Origin: a virus
Taxonomy: Duplodnaviria; Heunggongvirae; Uroviricota; Caudoviricetes
Length of the DNA: 40,640 bases
IMG/VR virus record: IMGVR_UViG_2541047698_000019
Direction: 5' to 3' (one strand)
Shown here: one piece after another, positions 30,629-40,264 of the stretch
Layout: every line of letters begins with the position of its first letter
Position numbering within the stretch: the stretch's first letter is position 1
Position numbers and translations under genes: made by a program
Notes under the pieces: model-generated
The model's input: only the letters and a program-made list of their open reading frames with translations
Told to the model about the DNA's origin: nothing
Database searches by the model: none

Positions 30629-31704
30629 ACGATAACGTCACGCTACGGGTAAATGGCCGGGAGTGGAATGGCTGGACATCGGTGCGCATCGGTGCCGGTG
30701 TTGAACGACTGGCGCGGGATTTCAGTGTGGAGATCACCCGCCAGTGGCCGGGAGATGAGGGTATTACCACGCTTCAGCCGCGCATTAAAAACGGTTCAAA
30801 AGTGGAAGTGCTGATTGGTGATGAGCTGGTGATCACCGGCTGGGTGGAGGCGACGCCCGTTCGTTACGATGCCCGTTCGGTCAGCACCGGTATTGCCGGA
30901 CGTAGTCTGACCGCTGATCTGATTGACTGTGCAGCCGAACCGACACAGTTTAACGGACGATCGCTGGTACAGATTGCGCAGGCGCTTGCTGCGCCTTTCG
31001 GCATTGAGGTGGTGAACAGCGGTGCGCCGTCGGGTGTTATTCCTGATGTCCAGCCTGATCACGGTGAAACGGTGATTGAGGTGATCAACAAAATACTTGG
31101 TCAGCAGCAGGCGCTGGCTTACGACGACCCGCACGGCAGGCTGGTGATTGGCGGTATTGGCTCAACGCGGGCACATACCGCGCTGGTACTCGGGGAAAAC
31201 ATCCTTTCCTGCGATACGGAGAAGAGTATCCGGGAGCGGTTTTCTGTTTACCAGGTGGCGGGGCAGCGTGCCGGAAACGATGATGATTTCGGTGAGGCCA
31301 CCACCACCGCGCTGCGGGCCCGCACAGAGGACGCATTTATTGCCCGTTACCGTCCGATGTATATCAGGCAGACAGGGCAGGCTACGGGGGCAGGCTGTAT
31401 TGCGCGTGCTGACTTTGAAGCCCGGCAACGGGCGGCGCGGACGGATGAAACCACCTATGTGGTGCAGGGCTGGCGACAGGGTAACGGTACGCTGTGGCAG
31501 CCCAACCAGCGGGTGATTGTCTTCGATCCGGTCTGTGGTTTCGACAATACCGAACTGCTTGTCTCGGAAGTCACGTTTACTCAGGACCAGAACGGCACCC
31601 TGACGGAAATCCGTGTCGGCCCGCCTGATGCTTATCTGCCTGAACCCGAAGCCCCCGGCGCGCGGAAAAAGAAAAAAGCCAGAGTACAGGAGGACCCGTT
31701 CTGA
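30625..31704 (+). CDS. baseplate hub / tail protein (Mu gpP-like)
   Basis: 359 aa. Position and N-terminal pattern. Confidence 0.7.
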   Translation: MNDNVTLRVNGREWNGWTSVRIGAGVERLARDFSVEITRQWPGDEGITTLQPRIKNGSKVEVLIGDELVITGWVEATPVRYDARSVSTGIAGRSLTADLIDCAAEPTQFNGRSLVQIAQALAAPFGIEVVNSGAPSGVIPDVQPDHGETVIEVINKILGQQQALAYDDPHGRLVIGGIGSTRAHTALVLGENILSCDTEKSIRERFSVYQVAGQRAGNDDDFGEATTTALRARTEDAFIARYRPMYIRQTGQATGAGCIARADFEARQRAARTDETTYVVQGWRQGNGTLWQPNQRVIVFDPVCGFDNTELLVSEVTFTQDQNGTLTEIRVGPPDAYLPEPEAPGARKKKKARVQEDPF

Positions 31705-32252
31705 TGAGGACGATTGAAGCCATGCAGCGACAACTCCTCGGCCTGATTGGGCGGGCCGTGGTGAAAAGCATCAGTGCCGCCACGAAATGTCAGACCGTGG
31801 ATGTGTCCCTGATTGCCGGTGAACCCAAAGCCGGGGTTGAACATCTTGAACCCTACGGTTTTACCGCAAGGGCAAACAGCGGTGCGGAAGCGGTGGTGTT
31901 GTTTCCGGATGGCGACCGTTCTCATGCGGTGGTTGTTACGGTGTCGGACCGTCGCTACCGCCTGAAAGGGCTGCAGACGGGTGAGGTGGCTGTCTATGAC
32001 GATCAGGGGCAGTCCGTGACGCTGACCCGGGAGGGGATCGTGGTGGACGGTGCAGGTAAAACGATCACGTTTCGCAATGCGCCTAAGGCACGTTTTGAAA
32101 TGGACCTGGAAGTGACCGGACAGGTGAAAGACCTGTGCGACTCCGGCGGCACCACCATGTCAGCGATGCGGCTTGCCTATAACGGGCATCGTCACAGAGA
32201 GAACGGTCAGGGCAGTAACACCGACAAACCTGATAAAGCGATGGAGGCATGA
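31704..32252 (+). CDS. baseplate assembly protein V (spike)
   Basis: 182 aa. Confidence 0.7.
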   Translation: MRTIEAMQRQLLGLIGRAVVKSISAATKCQTVDVSLIAGEPKAGVEHLEPYGFTARANSGAEAVVLFPDGDRSHAVVVTVSDRRYRLKGLQTGEVAVYDDQGQSVTLTREGIVVDGAGKTITFRNAPKARFEMDLEVTGQVKDLCDSGGTTMSAMRLAYNGHRHRENGQGSNTDKPDKAMEA

Positions 32253-32677
32253 TGGAAGTGTGGCTGACGGTGAACGGTAAACGCACCTGCGCCAGCGCAC
32301 CGCTGGATCCGCTGACCCGCGCCGTGGTGATTTCCCTGTTTACCTGGCGGCGGGCGGAGCCTGATGACAATGCCGACGTCCCGATGGGATGGTGGGGGGA
32401 TACCTGGCCTGCGGTACAGAATGACCGTTACGGCTCCCGACTGTGGCTGCTTCAACGCAGCAAACTGACCAATCAACTGGTGCAGACGGTAAGGGGGTAT
32501 ATCCGCGAATGCCTGCAATGGATGATTGATGACGGCGTGGTGTCCCGTATTGATCTGGATATCCGCCGCACCGGGATTAATGAACTGGGTAACAGTATCA
32601 CTCTCTGGCGTCGTGACGGACCGGTAATGATTTCTTTTGATGATCTGTGGAGTGCGATAACGCATGGCGAACAGTGA
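32249..32677 (+). CDS. baseplate protein (Mu gp46-like)
   Basis: 142 aa. Confidence 0.6.
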   Translation: MMEVWLTVNGKRTCASAPLDPLTRAVVISLFTWRRAEPDDNADVPMGWWGDTWPAVQNDRYGSRLWLLQRSKLTNQLVQTVRGYIRECLQWMIDDGVVSRIDLDIRRTGINELGNSITLWRRDGPVMISFDDLWSAITHGEQ

Positions 32678-33722
32678 ATTTCAGCGCCCGACGCTGGCAG
32701 AAAATATCAGTATGCTCCGTAACGATTTATTCGCCAGGCTGGACGTCAGCGACACGCTCCGGCGCATGGATGAAGACGTGCGGGCAAAGGTGTATGCGGC
32801 GGCGCTGCATACGGTTTACGGTTACATCGATTATCTGGCAATGAACATGCTGCCTGACCTGTGCGATGAGTCCTGGCTGGCGCGACATGCTGCGATGAAA
32901 CGGTGTCCGCGCAAGGGGGCCACGGCTGCCAGCGGGTATATGCGCTGGGAAGGTGTCAGCGATGGCCTGAAGGTGACCGCCGGGAGTGTTATTCAGCGCG
33001 ATGACCTGGTTCAGTACATGGCAACTGCCGATGCAACCAGCTCCGGTGGTGTCCTGCGCGTGCCGATCGCATGCTCAAATGCAGGCGCGGTCGGTAACGC
33101 TGACGACGGTTCGGCATTAATCCTGGTCACGCCGGTGAATGGTCTGCCGTCTTCCGGTGTGGCTGACACCCTGACAGGCGGATTTGATACTGAAGAGCTG
33201 GAAACGTGGCGCGCCCGCGTCATTGAGCGGTATTACTGGACGCCGCAGGGCGGGGCTGACGGGGACTATGTCGTCTGGGCTAAAGAAGTGCCCGGCATTA
33301 CCCGCGCATGGACATACCGTCACTGGATGGGAACGGGAACTGTCGGTGTGATGATTGCCAGCAGTGACCTGATTAATCCCATTCCGGAAGAATCAACGGA
33401 AACGGCGGCAAGACAACATATCGGGCCACTGGCCCCGGTGGCAGGCTCTGATTTGTATGTGTTCAGGCCGGTGGCACATACGGTGGATTTTCATATCCGC
33501 GTGACGCCGGACACACCGGAAATACGGGCTGCCATCACCGCGGAGTTGCGTTCGTTCCTGCTGCGTGATGGTTATCCGCAGGGAGAACTGAAGGTATCGC
33601 GTATCAGTGAGGCGATTTCCGGTGCGAACGGGGAATACAGCCATCAGTTGCTTGCACCGGCAGACAATATCTCCATTGCAAAAAATGAACTGGCGGTTCT
33701 GGGGACGATTTCATGGACGTGA
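32664..33722 (+). CDS. baseplate J-like protein (Mu gp47-like)
   Basis: 352 aa. Confidence 0.75.
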
Positions 33723-34297
33723 CAAACGATGATTACATCCGTCTGTTGTCGGCACTGTTGCCCCCCGGTCCGGCGTGGTCAGCCAGCGATCCGGCGATTG
33801 CCGGTGCGGCACCGTCATTAACCCGCGTTCATCAGCGTGCGGATGCCCTGATGCGGGAGCTGGATCCGCGCACCACCACCGAACTGATAAACCGCTGGGA
33901 GCGTCTGTGCGGCCTGCCGGATGAATGTATTCCGGCAGGGACACAGACCCTTCGCCAGCGTCAGCAACGACTGGATGCGAAGGTTAACCTGGCGGGCGGC
34001 ATCAATGAGGATTTTTACCTTGCACAGCTTGCTGCCCTGGGCAGACCAGACGCCACCATCACGCGATACGACAAAAGCACGTTCACCTGCTCATCGGCCT
34101 GTACTGACGCGGTGAATGCGCCGGAATGGCGGTATTACTGGCAGGTCAACATGCCAGCCGCCACCAACACCACCTGGATGACATGTGGCGATCCCTGTGA
34201 TTCCGCACTGCGTATCTGGGGCGACACCGTTGTCGAGTGTGTGCTTAACAAACTCTGCCCGTCGCATACCTACGTAATTTTTAAATATCCGGAGTAA
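33713..34297 (+). CDS. tail protein (Mu gp48-like, DUF2313)
   Basis: 194 aa. Confidence 0.65.
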
Positions 34298-34300
34298 TTC

Positions 34301-35305
34301 ATGCATCGTATAGACACGAAAACCGCGCAGAAGGATAAGTTCGGCGCGGGTAAGAACGGTTTTACCCGTGGTAACCCCCAGACCGGCACGCCTGCTACCG
34401 ATCTGGATGATGACTACTTTGACATGTTGCAGGAAGAGCTTTGTGGCGTGGTGGAGGCATCCGGTGCCAGCCTGGAGAAGGGGCGAAACGACCAGTTGCT
34501 TACCGCGCTTCGTGCGCTGCTGTTAAGCCGCAAGAATCCGTTTGGTGATATCAAATCGGATGGCACGGTGAAAACGGCTCTCGAAAACCTTGGTTTGGGA
34601 GATGGAACAGGAAGACTCATTGCAGTGTACCGGATTGACACATCCCGGCAAATTACACTGCCGAAAGATGCCAGGTTTGTTGTGGCAGATATGATTGGTG
34701 GCGGAGGCGGCGGTGGCAGTAACTCCACGACCGTACAACCCGGATATGCGTCAGCAGGGCAGGGCGGGAATTCAGGTAGCCGTGTGGTAGCAAAATTCAC
34801 AGTTGATGCCAGTCAGAAAATTAATATTACTATTGGCGCAGGTGGTGCGGGGGGCGTGACAACTCCCGCAACCGGAGCTAATGGAAGTGACGGTGGGGCT
34901 ACGATTATCGACGGTATTACAGCTACTGGTGGGCGAGGTGGAGCTAAGGGGGCAGCATTTAATGTTCTGCCAACCGGCGGGCCTACAGCGATTCAGAATG
35001 CTAATAACACCATTCCTGGAGGAGCAGAATTGATAGCACAGCATCTCGGGTATGGTGGAAGCTCTGGATTTCTGTTCTCGGATAAAAATGCGATTGGCGG
35101 GAAAGGGGCTGACTCTGAATTCGGAGTGGGCGGTGTGGCAGTCGGAATTAGCTCAGGAGTCAATGCATCGACGGGAAAAAATGCCACAGGTAATGGCTCT
35201 GGCGGAAGCGGCGCGGTCTCTATTTATGGATCAGGGTCTACCGGGGTGTCTATGTCGGGTGGAGCAGGGGCTGACGGTCTGGCGATTTTGTGGGTATACG
35301 GCTAA
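34301..35305 (+). CDS. tail fibre protein with glycine-rich C-terminal region
   Basis: 334 aa. Conserved N-terminal attachment region then Gly/Ser/Ala-rich repeats. Confidence 0.7.
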
Positions 35306-35700
35306 TGAACAGATACGCATTAATTAAAAACAATATTGTTGTTAATATCGTTGTTTGGGATGGCGCAGGAGATATGTTTGCCGATTTTAAGGCAGTTAAT
35401 ATCTCTGGTGTTGCAGTTGATATTGGATGGATCTATGACGGAAATAATTTCACAGCCCCCCCCGAACCTGAGAAAACTAAAGAACAGTTAATCCAGGAAG
35501 CAGAACTCGAAAAAGAAGGGCGCATACGTGCTGCAAATGATTTTATTAACAGCAAGCAGTGGCCCGGTAAAGCGGCTATTGGTCGTCTGAAAGGTGACGA
35601 ACTGGAGCAATATAATTTGTGGCTGGATTATCTGGACGCACTGGATGCTGTAGATACTTCAACTGCACCAGAAATAGACTGGCCTCAGCAATCAGAATAA
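35305..35700 (+). CDS. tail fibre assembly protein
   Basis: ORF 35290-35700 trimmed to the ATG of [10 protein letters not shown]. Confidence 0.6.
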   Translation: MNRYALIKNNIVVNIVVWDGAGDMFADFKAVNISGVAVDIGWIYDGNNFTAPPEPEKTKEQLIQEAELEKEGRIRAANDFINSKQWPGKAAIGRLKGDELEQYNLWLDYLDALDAVDTSTAPEIDWPQQSE

Positions 35701-35727
35701 AAATATGGGGCAGCGCCCCATATTTCT
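35701..35727. terminator. bidirectional rho-independent terminator
   Basis: aaa-atatggggc-agc-gccccatat-ttt between the convergent tail-fibre-assembly (+) and acyltransferase (-) genes. Confidence 0.7.
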
Positions 35728-35736
35728 CGTTGACTG

Positions 35737-36783
35737 TCATATTAAAGCTTTTCGTAAAAGTGTCTTGCCGATTAAAACACCTCTTCGCTCTACAAGCTTG
35801 TGCGCAAAATAACAAACTATAAATAACAATAATAATATTTGAATGTTACTATTGATGTATTTAATTCCGATTTTATTAACTACTAATAACAAAGAGTCCC
35901 AAATCCAGTTATGAAATAAGTACACAGCATAAGTCATTTCAGATAGCAAATTGCATGCTTTGGATTCAATGAATCTATCTTTAAATAACCACGAACAAAG
36001 AAAAATAACAGTTCCTGTGAATGCGTAGTTGTAGTGCCCCCAGAATGGGTTTATTTTTTCAATGAGAGATAAATGAAGATAGAACATAGTTACGATGGAT
36101 ATTAAAGCAACAATCCGATTAACTAACTTATGCTCTGTAAGGTACACTACTACACCTATAAACAAAAATGGCGTATACAAGGTGAAGTAAGCATTATGAA
36201 AATCCTTCGCTACAGGGAAAGGATTAATGGTGGATATAAATAATGATATAAAAAGTAGTAGAACTGTTAAAACGTTTCCTTTATTTATGAGTCCGACTTT
36301 TTTAACCAAACCCATAAACACATAGAACAGCATTTCTATTCTTAACGTCCATTCAACACCAGCCAATGAAAGAGGTGTGTTAAAGAAATCGCCTATAAGC
36401 AATAATCTAGGTATTATTATGCTCAGAGGTGGAATGTTTCCACCATTATAGTATTGGATCAACATTTCAGCTAAAACAGCAAAAATATAGAGTGGGTATA
36501 TTCTAAATATTCTTTTTAAATAAAATTCAAAAGTTGCTTCTTTTTGTAGTACGTGGGTGATGATGTACCCTGAAACAAGAAAGAAGATCACAACCCCCAT
36601 TGCACCACCGAAACTGGCATCTGCTAGTAATCCGTAAAAAAGCCTCAGTGTAACGTGGTTACTTGGATCGTTCGCCAACGAAGATAAATCTTTGTTGAAC
36701 TTATGACCTAACACCACAAGGGAGAACGCAATTACACGCATGTAATCTAAAAAAAGAATTCGACGATTGTTCATGATTTTCAT
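35737..36783 (-). CDS. acyltransferase family 3 membrane protein (O-antigen acetylase, Oac-like)
   Basis: 348 aa polytopic membrane protein with the family-typical N-terminal FLDYMRVIAFSLVVLGH region. Very AT-rich. Confidence 0.75.
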   Translation of the reverse strand: MKIMNNRRILFLDYMRVIAFSLVVLGHKFNKDLSSLANDPSNHVTLRLFYGLLADASFGGAMGVVIFFLVSGYIITHVLQKEATFEFYLKRIFRIYPLYIFAVLAEMLIQYYNGGNIPPLSIIIPRLLLIGDFFNTPLSLAGVEWTLRIEMLFYVFMGLVKKVGLINKGNVLTVLLLFISLFISTINPFPVAKDFHNAYFTLYTPFLFIGVVVYLTEHKLVNRIVALISIVTMFYLHLSLIEKINPFWGHYNYAFTGTVIFLCSWLFKDRFIESKACNLLSEMTYAVYLFHNWIWDSLLLVVNKIGIKYINSNIQILLLLFIVCYFAHKLVERRGVLIGKTLLRKALI

Positions 36784-36858
36784 TTAATTTATTGAGTTGT
36801 GATCATTTTATAGCAACTAACCATTGTTAGCTATGCTGTCACCTTGTAAACAAGATGG

Positions 36859-37185
36859 TTATGTGACATCACCGTCGATCCAGTCCTCCCACCACTGCAT
36901 CATTTCTCTGCGCTTATCGAGATACTGAGCATGGTTATAAATCCAACGCACAGATCCGCCGTTGGCATGCGCCAGTTGAGCTTTAATGACTTTGCGACGC
37001 AACTCAATAATCAAGAGCATGGAGTCAATCATCCAATCATCAATTGATCGAGAATTGAAGTGGTTGTTGAGACAAAACTGAGACACACAAAGCCTTGCAC
37101 TTGATTGCAAGGCTTTGGGCTCTTCTGTGGGGGCTACATGTCTGAAGAGCGTTGTGCCGTATTTGTGACATGCATATAACAACAT
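36859..37185 (-). CDS. hypothetical protein (doubtful)
   Basis: 108-aa ORF with no convincing RBS and no family recognised. May be a remnant. Confidence 0.25.
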   Translation of the reverse strand: MLLYACHKYGTTLFRHVAPTEEPKALQSSARLCVSQFCLNNHFNSRSIDDWMIDSMLLIIELRRKVIKAQLAHANGGSVRWIYNHAQYLDKRREMMQWWEDWIDGDVT

Positions 37186-37266
37186 AATGCATCAACTTTC
37201 TGTTTGTGCCATCAGCTATGGCTTAGTGAATGCAGTTAATGCTTGCTAGAATGATTGGTGCTACAG

Positions 37267-37293
37267 ATTCGTAATGCGAAGGTTGTAGGTTCG
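37267..37293 (+). other. tRNA-Thr-like fragment (anticodon-arm to T-arm segment), not a functional tRNA
   Basis: ATTCGTAATGCGAAGGTTGTAGGTTCG closely resembles the corresponding part of enterobacterial tRNA-Thr (thrW, from memory), but the flanking sequence cannot form the acceptor, anticodon or T stems. Confidence 0.4.
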
Positions 37294-37452
37294 TCCCCCT
37301 TTTCAGTACTACCTAAATCAATAAGTTACCTAACTTTCAGTTATGACAGAAAGATATATATGCCAAGTAAAGTATAGAGAAACTGTCAAAGCAATAAAGG
37401 CTGGTGCTCCGTGTGTGGCGGCTGATGTATAGACATTTATGCAGATGAAACG

Positions 37453-37478
37453 AAAAAAAGCCCGCATCTGCGGGCTTT
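37453..37478 (-). terminator. rho-independent terminator on the minus strand
   Basis: On the minus strand: aagcccgc-agat-gcgggctt followed by seven U. Lies about 250 nt downstream of the dinI-like gene. Confidence 0.65.
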
Positions 37479-37730: not shown

Positions 37731-37979
37731 TTAGTGAACAAACCACTCGTCAGCAGATTCCCAGGTATCTTTCAGAGTCTCCTGAACAAAAGTTTTTACA
37801 GAATCCTTATCTGCGGTGCGTGTAACAGAAAGGCCATCGTTGCTGGTGGCTTTTACGATCACCTCTACATCATCATAACGTTTACTGATGCGTCGGGTTA
37901 ATTCTTCCTTTAACGCGTCCACAGCACCGGTTGGCATTTTAGTCATTTTTTCTTTGGCTATGCAGATTTCAATACGCAT
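37731..37979 (-). CDS. DinI-like DNA-damage-inducible protein
   Basis: 82 aa. [10 protein letters not shown]...[17 protein letters not shown] parallels E. coli DinI (from memory). AGAGGGA RBS. Confidence 0.8.
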
Positions 37980-38040: not shown

Positions 38041-39138
38041 TCAAGAGGTCTTATTTCTGCTCCTTTGGAGCTCTTCAAAACGATTATGTAAAGATTTCGG
38101 ATACAGTTCGGTATATACCTGCCATAGCACGTTTAATGAACGATGCCCTGTAACTTGGGCGACTTCCTCAATACTAAAACCAGCCTCAAATAAGCGACTT
38201 GCCCCTTCTCTACGCAAATCATGGTATCGCAGATCTTTAATACCTAATTTGCTTCTTACCCTCTGAAATCCCGCAGTAACAGAAGTGCTGTTATATGGAA
38301 AAATGAATTCCGATTTTTGGGGCTGTCGTTGGACGATATCCCAGGCTTCCCCAAGCAAGGCTACTTTCATGTGGTTGCCTTCCTTTTTGCGTGGATCTTT
38401 CCTGTCTCTTACGAGTATAGATTTTTGTTCTTGGTCGAGATCTTCCCATCGTAACCGGCATACTTCTCCGATTCGCATACAGGACCACACAGAAAATTTG
38501 AGGATATCAACGAACGGAATTTTTGAGCATTTATGAGTAGATCGTTGTTGAAGGCCTTCAATGAGCATGTCCAGTTCATCAGATGCTGGTCTACGATTAC
38601 GACGGTTTGATTTACCAATCAAACCAAGTTTAAGTAGATATGGACGAGCGCTTTTCGCTGGGTTTGATGTGTAATTAATTCCGTATACAGGTTTGGCTGC
38701 ATCCAGAACACTGCCAAGATAACTAACATCGTGGCTGACTGTTGCTGGACCTGCACCAGCGTTGTTTCTTAGCCTGCAATGTTCAATTACGTCATTTTCG
38801 GTCAGTTCGGATAGTTTGATCGCGGAGATGTCACTATCCATAAGCAGTTCCAGCACATATCTTTTAGTACGGCCTGCTTTACCTCCGGCATTTGGGTCAT
38901 TTAAATATTTGTGTAGTAAGTCACGGACTGTAAGTCCGTCAACTGCATTTGATGATGGAATGCCATATAGATCTAATTCCATCACTTTCTGTGTACCCCA
39001 TGTTTTGGCATGGGCATGTTTAGGGAATGTTTTGCTTTCCCTGTAAGTGATAACACCTTTTTCTTTGATAATCACATTACAGCGATAGCGTGGTGTGCCA
39101 TCGGATTTTAGTCGTTTCTCTATGTTATAGTACGCCAT
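38041..39138 (-). CDS. tyrosine integrase (dusA-associated integrase type)
   Basis: 365 aa. C-terminal catalytic region with R...H-x-x-R...Y pattern (HDLRR, GHRS, Y near the C-terminus). Adjacent to and divergent from dusA. Confidence 0.9.
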   Translation of the reverse strand: MAYYNIEKRLKSDGTPRYRCNVIIKEKGVITYRESKTFPKHAHAKTWGTQKVMELDLYGIPSSNAVDGLTVRDLLHKYLNDPNAGGKAGRTKRYVLELLMDSDISAIKLSELTENDVIEHCRLRNNAGAGPATVSHDVSYLGSVLDAAKPVYGINYTSNPAKSARPYLLKLGLIGKSNRRNRRPASDELDMLIEGLQQRSTHKCSKIPFVDILKFSVWSCMRIGEVCRLRWEDLDQEQKSILVRDRKDPRKKEGNHMKVALLGEAWDIVQRQPQKSEFIFPYNSTSVTAGFQRVRSKLGIKDLRYHDLRREGASRLFEAGFSIEEVAQVTGHRSLNVLWQVYTELYPKSLHNRFEELQRSRNKTS

Positions 39139-39193: not shown

Positions 39194-39226
39194 TAACGCG
39201 AGAAAAATAGCCTGAAATGTTCAAAA

Positions 39227-39330
39227 ATGCACGATAATCCTGAAACACAGAAAACTAATCAAACCAGCGTGATGCCTGAAAAAACTGGCGCTTACTGGAG
39301 TTCCCGGTTTAGCATTGCTCCTATGCTCGA
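39227..39330 (+). repeat. phage-supplied replacement 5' end of dusA (direct-repeat copy at the right junction)
   Basis: About 80 percent identical to 1320-1423. Identity ends in a shared ATGCTCGA, after which this copy continues as dusA and the left copy as phage DNA. Confidence 0.7.
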
Positions 39331-40264
39331 CTGGACGGACAGACATTGCCGCTATTTCTTGCGTCTGCTTTCCCGCAATACGTTGCTGTATACCGAAATG
39401 GTGACTACAGGGGCGATTATTCACGGTAAAGGTGATTACCTGGCGTACAGTGAAGAAGAACATCCGGTAGCATTGCAACTGGGCGGTAGCGATCCGGCGG
39501 CGCTGGCGCAGTGTGCAAAGCTGGCAGAAGCGCGCGGATATGATGAGATCAACCTGAATGTCGGCTGCCCGTCTGACCGGGTGCAGAACGGCATGTTTGG
39601 GGCGTGTCTGATGGGTAATGCGCAGCTGGTTGCCGACTGCGTGAAAGCGATGCGCGATGTGGTGTCGATTCCGGTGACGGTGAAAACGCGTATTGGCATC
39701 GACGACCAGGACAGCTATGAATTTCTCTGCGATTTCATCAACACCGTTTCCGGCAAAGGCGAGTGTGAGATGTTCATCATCCACGCACGTAAAGCCTGGC
39801 TTTCGGGGTTAAGCCCGAAAGAAAACCGTGAAATCCCGCCGCTCGATTATCCGCGTGTGTATCAACTGAAGCGTGACTTTCCGCATCTGACAATGTCGAT
39901 TAACGGTGGCATCAAGTCGCTGGAAGAGGCTAAAGCGCATTTGCAACATATGGATGGCGTGATGGTCGGGCGCGAAGCGTATCAGAATCCGGGTATTCTG
40001 GCGGCGGTAGACCGAGAGATCTTTGGTTCCTCGGATACCGATGCCGATCCGGTGGCGGTAGTGCGCGCCATGTATCCGTACATTGAGCGTGAACTCAGCC
40101 AGGGGACGTATCTTGGCCATATTACCCGGCATATGCTGGGCTTGTTCCAGGGTATTCCTGGCGCGCGGCAGTGGCGGCGTTATTTAAGTGAAAATGCCCA
40201 TAAAGCGGGTGCAGACATTAATGTGCTGGAACACGCGCTCAAACTGGTGGCGGATAAGCGTTAA
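39227..40264 (+). CDS. dusA: tRNA-dihydrouridine(20/20a) synthase DusA
   Basis: 345 aa. TIM-barrel Dus-family signatures and near-identity to E. coli DusA outside the first about 35 residues. Confidence 0.95.

Follow-up and report, generated by a model that had tools for sequence, protein, structure and literature searches.

A candidate O-antigen acyltransferase gene carried by an SfV-like prophage integrated in Escherichia coli dusA

Introduction

What does a gene for a membrane acyltransferase, far richer in AT than its surroundings, do beside the tail-fibre genes of a phage? The question is raised by the gene at 35737–36783 (minus strand) of IMGVR_UViG_2541047698_000019, a 40,640 nt record of a member of the Caudoviricetes; this whole stretch is referred to here as the window. 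A preliminary description, made from the sequence alone, took the gene for lysogenic-conversion cargo that acetylates O-antigen, changing serotype and blocking superinfection. Here, we describe the gene, its setting and its relatives, and conclude that it is probably a lysogenic-conversion gene or 'moron', encoding a stand-alone acyltransferase-3 (AT3) transmembrane O-acyltransferase that acetylates the host O-antigen.

Results

The acyltransferase gene and its product

The reading frame is intact, with no internal stop codons, and specifies 348 aa; in identical homologues at NCBI the start is placed at the fourth codon, an ATG at 36774, to give 345 aa. Comparison with Pfam returned a single domain, Acyl_transf_3 (PF01757), at 83.8 bits (E=1.6e-23) against a curated cut-off of 31 bits. 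The match covers residues 10–323 and profile positions 2–316 of 326, the protein ends 25 residues past it and no second Pfam domain was found. The NCBIfam library holds no model for the protein, and a sequence search for relatives with solved structures returned none.

AT3 proteins share three catalytic motifs, R/K-X10-H in transmembrane helix (TMH) 1, RXXR in TMH3 and VxxFFx(I/V/L)SG(F/W/Y) (PMC9833829, PMC9558356), and the Arg and His of the first are essential (PMC9833829). All three are present, as R16-X10-H27, R91-I-F-R94 at the cytoplasmic face of TMH3 and V64-V-I-F-F-L-V-S-G-Y73. Conservation was judged on two alignments, of 18 and 79 homologues. Across the 79, residues H27, R91, R94, F67, F68, S71 and G72 are invariant, and R16 and V64 are each conserved in at least 90%. 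E144-W-T-L-R-x-E150, H291 and E332 are likewise conserved in all or nearly all (at least 90%) of the aligned homologues. An AlphaFold2 model (pLDDT 93.6, pTM 0.91) has approximately 10 long helices and predicts the polytopic AT3 fold, with about 10 TMHs and a central cavity. This predicted fold resembles those of solved transmembrane acetyl-CoA:glycan acetyltransferases. The solved eukaryotic acyl-CoA:glycan acyltransferases HGSNAT and GWT1 are larger proteins with 11–14% identity, and the likeness is one of fold and mechanism, not of family.

Comparison with copies that share 84–90% nucleotide identity in the coding sequence gave a ratio of nonsynonymous to synonymous substitution rates (dN/dS) of 0.12–0.13, which shows that the gene is under purifying selection. 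Its GC content is 0.335, as is that of its third codon positions, while the SfV-like structural genes described below are at 0.534 and the whole prophage is at 0.503. It is the most AT-rich kilobase of the prophage, equalled by 0.25% of 1047 bp segments, and is compositionally foreign to the phage. As judged from its motifs and predicted fold, the product is an intact AT3 membrane acyltransferase with predicted O-acylating activity. The preliminary description had presented a 348 aa AT3 membrane protein encoded by a gene far more AT-rich than the phage backbone, and both statements are borne out.

A cargo gene in the serotype-conversion slot

A 117 nt imperfect direct repeat (80% identity), with plus-strand copies at 1317–1433 and 39224–39340 that are spaced 37,907 bp apart, duplicates the 5′ end of dusA. 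The right flank is 99.7% identical to the dusA-pspG region of E. coli, and dusA (39227–40264) is in the opposite orientation to an adjacent, intact gene for a tyrosine integrase of the dusA-targeting type (38041–39138, minus strand; Pfam Phage_integrase), which forms the prophage end and is divergent to dusA. Elements specific for dusA have their integrase gene next to the dusA 5′ end, supply a new 5′ end and leave an imperfect repeat at the far end (PMC4482086), and each of these features was found here. On this comparison, the attR-side copy of the repeat is the 5′ end of dusA that the phage DNA supplies, which appears to be the working one, and the attL-side copy is the displaced original 5′ end, marking the left border of the prophage.

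Within these borders are a cI-type repressor gene (helix-turn-helix and S24 peptidase domains), a CII-like gene, early genes, and head and tail genes that are 97.7% identical to those of Shigella phage SfV and approximately 97% identical to those of SfII, SfI and SfIV. As the dusA repeats enclose repressor, early and SfV-like structural genes, we conclude that the acyltransferase gene is cargo of a complete 37.9 kb SfV-like temperate myovirus.

In this phage lineage, the position taken by the gene is the one used for serotype conversion. It is convergent with the plus-strand genes for the tail fibre (34301–35305) and the fibre assembly chaperone (35290–35700), and lies between the receptor-binding protein gene and int/att, as Oac-type genes do. 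In SfV, the fibre chaperone gene is followed by a terminator, gtrV-gtrB-gtrA on the opposite strand, and int. In the same slot, SfII has a terminator, the AT3 gene oacD, an insertion sequence, gtrII/B/A and int. The layout in Sf6 is tailspike, terminator, oac and IntS, with oac convergent with the tailspike gene, while a tail protein gene is convergent with oacB in Sf101 and a tail fibre gene with oac in phiV10; a terminator is part of the layout in all three. Convergence with the tail-fibre genes and carriage by a temperate phage, both put forward in the preliminary description, are borne out.

Comparison with individual counterparts revealed both likenesses and differences. Sf6 Oac (OacA) is also a stand-alone AT3 protein, of approximately 340 aa, encoded convergently with a receptor-binding gene across an intervening terminator and next to an IntS-type integrase gene, a layout reproduced exactly by the version of the window cassette found at argW (see below). 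OacA and the window protein fall in PHROG 3333, share the same motifs, and OacA is the top-scoring characterised relative; however, the 24% identity extends over the N-terminal ~190 residues only, and OacA is not an orthologue. Sf6 is also a podovirus with a tailspike, whereas the window phage is a myovirus with a fibre. SfII OacD (SfII_25) is AT3-only and, at 349 aa, matches the window protein in length, and its gene is downstream of the fibre chaperone gene, on the opposite strand and with its own terminator, in the same backbone (97% nucleotide identity over head and tail genes). Its sequence similarity to the window protein is, however, undetectable, and it has no PHROG match. SfII includes gtrA/B/II and integrates at thrW, whereas the window phage, which lacks gtr genes, is integrated in dusA. 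The gtrA-gtrB-gtrV genes of SfV have the identical slot and orientation, between fibre chaperone and int genes in the 97.7% identical backbone, and scraps of the SfV gtrA-int spacer persist in the window at 37017–37329. The presumed purpose, alteration of the O-antigen in lysogens, is the same, but in SfV it is achieved by glucosylation with three proteins and here would be achieved by acylation with one.

The AT3 genes for phiV10 Oac and Sf101 OacB are likewise convergent with a tail-fibre or tailspike gene, but their products belong to other AT3 clades. The annotation of the phiV10 gene credits it with O-antigen acetylation and with immunity to superinfection (PMC9558356). OafA and OafB of Salmonella (and the family-II GtrC of the BTP1 prophage) and OatA contain an AT3 domain with R-X10-H and RXXR, and OafB, which is encoded by a prophage, blocks the tailspike of that same phage (PMC9558356). 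OafA, OafB and OatA have a fused periplasmic SGNH domain, whereas the window protein, with 348 aa and a single Pfam domain, has no C-terminal SGNH domain and is not of the AT3-SGNH fusion class.

Transcription unit

The stop codons of the chaperone and acyltransferase genes are separated by a 36 nt gap that is occupied by a GC-rich hairpin (35699–35727). Read on the minus strand, the hairpin has 13 pairs and a ΔG of −20.2 kcal/mol (z-score −5.1), and on the plus strand 11 pairs and −16.9 kcal/mol (z-score −3.6); none of 200 shuffles matched its stability. A terminator pattern scan flagged it on the minus strand only, the T-run of the plus strand being weaker. The hairpin is firmly identified as the terminator of the acyltransferase transcript and probably also ends the late operon. 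Thus, the bidirectional terminator proposed in the preliminary description is secure for the acyltransferase strand and plausible for the plus strand.

Upstream of the gene, an extended −10 box, TGCTATAAAAT, is located at 36805–36815 (minus strand). In an alignment of the upstream regions of seven loci in which the acyltransferase region is 82–99% identical to the window, TGCTATAAA, the extended −10 at 36815–36807 on the gene's strand, was the only upstream element common to all seven cassette variants. A weaker −35/−10 match at 36850–36823 was also returned by a promoter scan. The conserved box is the probable promoter of the acyltransferase gene itself, and its conservation fits autonomous expression. 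With a predicted promoter and terminator of its own, an orientation opposite to the late genes and a foreign composition, the gene has the form of an autonomous, Oac-type unit. The gtr and oafB operons include Dam/OxyR sites associated with phase variation. Upstream of the acyltransferase gene just two GATC sites are present (~36801 and ~36876), neither retained in divergent cassette variants.

Relationship to characterised acyltransferases

The closest characterised AT3 protein is Sf6 OacA, at 42.7 bits, followed by Sf101 OacB at 33.9 bits. WecH, which acts on enterobacterial common antigen (ECA), and OpgC, which acts on periplasmic glucan, scored 20.0 bits (E=0.76) and 18.1 bits (E=3.3), respectively, which is at noise level, and a profile of the subfamily scored them at 11.4 and −7.7 bits. 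Against PHROG 3333, named 'O-acetyltransferase', the window protein scored 292 bits and Sf6 Oac 230 bits. The preliminary description had named membership of a non-O-antigen subgroup as a finding that would count against it, and the nearest characterised relatives are instead OacA and OacB. Comparison with characterised Oac proteins, which it had proposed as a check, revealed similarity at the family level only, and to OacA and OacB but not to OacD or phiV10 Oac.

How much orthology can be expected is limited by the phage Oac proteins themselves. A tblastn search with Sf6 Oac did not find OacB, OacD or phiV10 Oac. The phiV10 oac gene (locus L094, 23636–24652) is far nearer to wecH of K-12 (locus L095, 10888–11883; 76 bits) than to other phage oac genes, so AT3 clade and acceptor are only loosely coupled. 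As the characterised phage Oac proteins are polyphyletic, orthology does not define the class, and its absence is weak evidence against an O-antigen acceptor.

A tblastn search of 50,697 phage records with the window protein returned four weak matches (25–30% identity) in three phages, of Erwinia, Pantoea and Halomonas, and a literature search found no paper on the window acyltransferase subfamily. Homologues that are 40–42% identical to the window protein were found in several Legionella species. Lag-1, the 8-O-acetylase for legionaminic acid in the Legionella pneumophila O-antigen, was considered as a lead and dropped, as a database search queried with the Legionella drozanskii homologue included neither L. 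pneumophila nor Lag-1 among the 120 relatives listed.

Homologues in other phages and in chromosomes

All of the enterobacterial homologues with a visible phage context are tail-to-tail with a fibre, chaperone or tailspike gene. They are found in six types of phage: SfV-like, another myovirus, lambdoid, P2-like, P22-like and Mu-like. The carriers include SfV-like phages at dusA and argW, a different myovirus in the avian pathogenic E. coli strain BEN2908, lambdoid prophages at the bio locus, strain DX6, a Mu-like contig, a phage with a P22-like tailspike in Enterobacter and a prophage remnant in Trabulsiella. In a Citrobacter-type P2-like prophage (locus L098, 6001–7053), a 62% identical homologue is located between the fibre chaperone and sheath genes, which we take to be where phage P2 carries its Z/fun exclusion gene.

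More distant chromosomal homologues, 37–47% identical, are present in Pseudomonas, Legionella, Nitrospina and others. In two Legionella species the gene is downstream of rmlB-rmlA, and in a third it is beside GNAT and DegT genes. The commonest Pfam families among 118 neighbours at 32 loci were Hexapep, RmlB-like dehydratase, NTP_transferase, GT2, FdtA, GtrA and DegT, which points to dTDP-sugar or O-antigen-type glycans. Homologues in Pseudomonas (loci L004 and L015) are less AT-rich than the window gene, yet 10–15 GC points below their surroundings, while those in Legionella (loci L022 and L025) equal their genomes in composition; this hints at a low-GC origin of the subfamily.

The exact protein is present in public databases as an 'acyltransferase family protein', and its allele is recorded in 302 blocks of a public assembly collection. 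Among 24 contigs with this allele that were read, 23 have the dusA context. The gene is present in 6 of 5,426 complete E. coli genomes.

A cassette shared between phages

The tail fibre is a 334 aa protein with a Gly_rich_2 domain (Pfam; residues 117–330, E=4.7e-14). Its N-terminal ~100 aa form a baseplate adaptor common to SfV, and from ~34579, at an ALENLGLG linker, the remainder is the glycine-rich receptor-binding part, which belongs to a mobile cassette. The similarity to SfV ends within the fibre gene at 34602, and the 24 nt encoding ALENLGLG (34579–34602) are where similarity to the otherwise unrelated fibre gene of BEN2908 begins; the stretch has the appearance of a conserved linker at which fibre tips are exchanged by recombination. 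The chaperone gene (Pfam Caudo_TAP, E=7e-21) has a 3′ end that is the conserved left stub of the cassette.

Pairwise comparison revealed that 34579–36919 is shared with BEN2908 at 98.4% identity in an otherwise unrelated tail module. The shared span extends from the ALENLGLG linker through the fibre tip, chaperone gene, hairpin and acyltransferase gene to the first bases of an integrase stub. The SfV-like prophage at argW has 31000–36987 in common with the window, while the lambdoid, DX6 and Trabulsiella copies share the chaperone 3′ end and acyltransferase gene only. The 3′ part of the chaperone gene is kept beside the acyltransferase gene in E26, DX6 and Trabulsiella, and copies with ~99% nucleotide identity are maintained at several integration sites by phages of several types. 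On these alignments, fibre tip, chaperone and acyltransferase pass from phage to phage as a single cassette with conserved stubs at its ends, which is a mildly new point.

A glycine-rich fibre accompanies the acyltransferase in three backbones. At 87% acyltransferase identity, the fibres are merely 45% identical, and other carriers have unrelated fibres. The pairing of the two, as first described, is therefore real and frequent but not obligatory. In E. coli HCP4S3_I4 (locus L001, 8140–9177) a frameshift splits the acyltransferase gene into two coding sequences, and in BEN2908 (locus L002, 7707–8101) the fibre chaperone gene is broken; some copies of the cassette are thus decaying.

Beyond the acyltransferase gene is a recombination scar (36859–37329, minus strand), made up of an integrase 3′ stub and pieces resembling the SfV spacer. 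The stub (36859–36987) preserves ~43 codons from the end of an integrase gene of the IntS (argW) type, matches an NCBIfam integrase C-terminus and is 92.6% identical to the 3′ end of Sf6 int. Either side of a gap, 37017–37116 and 37267–37329 are ~80% identical to the gtrA-int (attP-side) intergenic region of SfV and SfII. A tRNA-like string at 37270–37300 proved instead to be a scrap resembling this attP-side spacer, and tRNA and Rfam scans of the window returned no matches. About half of complete E. coli genomes contain a similar stretch (~82–85% identical over 36873–37293). In its argW version, the allele is accompanied by a full IntS gene, from which it seems that the dusA phage obtained the cassette from a relative that integrates at argW, before gaining a DinI gene and the dusA integrase module.

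The DinI-like gene (37731–37979, minus strand; Pfam DinI, E=1.6e-19) forms a second, small piece of cargo, located between the acyltransferase and integrase genes. A DinI-like gene is also found beside the acyltransferase gene in DX6, Trabulsiella and the P0002 contig, which suggests that the two form a recurrent cargo arrangement. Downstream of the DinI-like gene, a second strong hairpin at 37453–37478 (gcccgc-atct-gcgggc) has an A-run on one side and a T-run on the other; it probably terminates transcription in both directions and shields that gene from the acyltransferase unit. Upstream of the fibre gene are plus-strand baseplate genes of the Mu/SfV type, namely Baseplate_J (32664–33722) and a Gp48-like gene (33713–34297). 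Just inside the left prophage border, a 178 aa open reading frame (1568–2104) without a Pfam match may be cargo at the other end.

Discussion

We regard it as probable that the acyltransferase gene is a lysogenic-conversion gene whose product acetylates the host O-antigen. That the O-antigen is the acceptor is well supported by inference, and we also infer that the gene is expressed in the lysogen, that the group transferred is acetyl and that lysogens show an exclusion phenotype. In a lysogen, the gene would be transcribed from its own promoter, against a silent late operon, with transcription ending at the shared hairpin. The ten-helix protein would reside in the inner membrane, with R16, H27, R91 and R94 lining a central cavity in which acetyl-CoA is bound from the cytoplasmic side. 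The acetyl group would then be passed to a sugar hydroxyl of the O-antigen repeat at the periplasmic face. The acetylated O-antigen would present an altered serological epitope and could hinder adsorption of phages that use the unmodified polymer, including those of its own kind. The logic would be that of the oac genes of Sf6 and phiV10 and of the gtr genes of SfV.

Several points weigh against this. The acceptors of AT3 proteins are diverse, and include capsule, ECA, peptidoglycan, glucans and Nod factors (PMC9558356), so an acceptor cannot be assigned from the family alone. None of the members of the subfamily has been characterised, and the window protein is not orthologous to OacA, OacB, OacD or phiV10 Oac: its 24% identity to OacA is confined to the N-terminal half, and similarity to OacD or phiV10 Oac was not detected. 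A study of Kapi1 found that candidate genes picked by homology may fail to explain an observed O-antigen modification, and the O-antigen type of the host is not encoded in the window. Enrichment of glycan genes near the chromosomal homologues amounts to 4–6 of the 32 loci, a count made without a formal control, and two enterobacterial homologues (45–50% identity) have neither phage nor polysaccharide genes nearby.

In an alternative reading, an enzyme of the same type, carried under the same moron logic, would act on another envelope glycan or transfer an acyl group other than acetyl. Candidate acceptors would be K-antigen or group 4 capsule, colanic acid, ECA, lipopolysaccharide core, periplasmic glucans and peptidoglycan, all of them targets of AT3 proteins (PMC9558356). 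Besides the lack of a characterised member, the BEN2908 carrier has a different tail backbone, so its receptor need not be O-antigen, and the proximity of phiV10 Oac to WecH shows how loosely clade and acceptor are coupled. We nevertheless consider this unlikely, though deserving of weight, as WecH and OpgC are at noise level, the SGNH domain of the peptidoglycan enzyme OatA is missing, every characterised AT3 protein in this phage slot acts on O-antigen and chromosomal homologues have neighbouring genes of the dTDP-sugar/O-antigen type (RmlA/B, FdtA, DegT, GtrA).

The remaining explanations deny the gene a role or a place in the phage. It could be a silent or decaying passenger without present function, left behind by an older argW phage and caught between the fibre genes and a dusA integrase module acquired more recently. 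The truncated IntS gene and attP-like scraps that flank it are what such a history would leave, the HCP4S3_I4 copy is split, and E. coli often silences foreign DNA that is rich in AT. However, the window gene is full length with all catalytic motifs and a low dN/dS, ~99% identical copies persist across phage types and integration sites, the −10 box is conserved and the exact allele recurs in 302 collection blocks, which make this improbable. An origin as a host chromosomal gene or island remnant outside the phage genome is harder still to credit. The adjoining truncated integrase gene and the very different composition would fit it, but the gene lies between the chaperone and intact integrase genes, well inside the 37.9 kb element bounded by dusA repeats, and the arrangement is the same in the 23 of 24 contigs. 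O-antigen acetylation as lysogenic conversion is the reading we retain.

A further, tentative suggestion is that the acyltransferase gene is not an independent moron but one half of a portable 'recognise-and-mask' cassette made up of the NLGLG linker, glycine-rich fibre tip, chaperone, terminator, acyltransferase and integrase 3′ stub. If this were so, one recombination at the stubs would deliver both a new host-range determinant and an enzyme that masks the same receptor in lysogens.

In concept, an O-antigen acetylase in this position adds nothing beyond the paradigm of Sf6, SfII and phiV10, and would be an ordinary, well-known kind of phage cargo. O-acetylation alters antibody recognition of O-antigens. 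If the proposed function is correct, the prophage would give the O-antigen of its E. coli hosts an O-acetyl epitope that is not predictable from the O-antigen gene cluster used for in silico serotyping, and the susceptibility of those hosts to O-antigen-dependent phages could change. The gene would also give a large AT3 subfamily, as yet uncharacterised and extending to Pseudomonas, Legionella and many other Proteobacteria, its first testable member.

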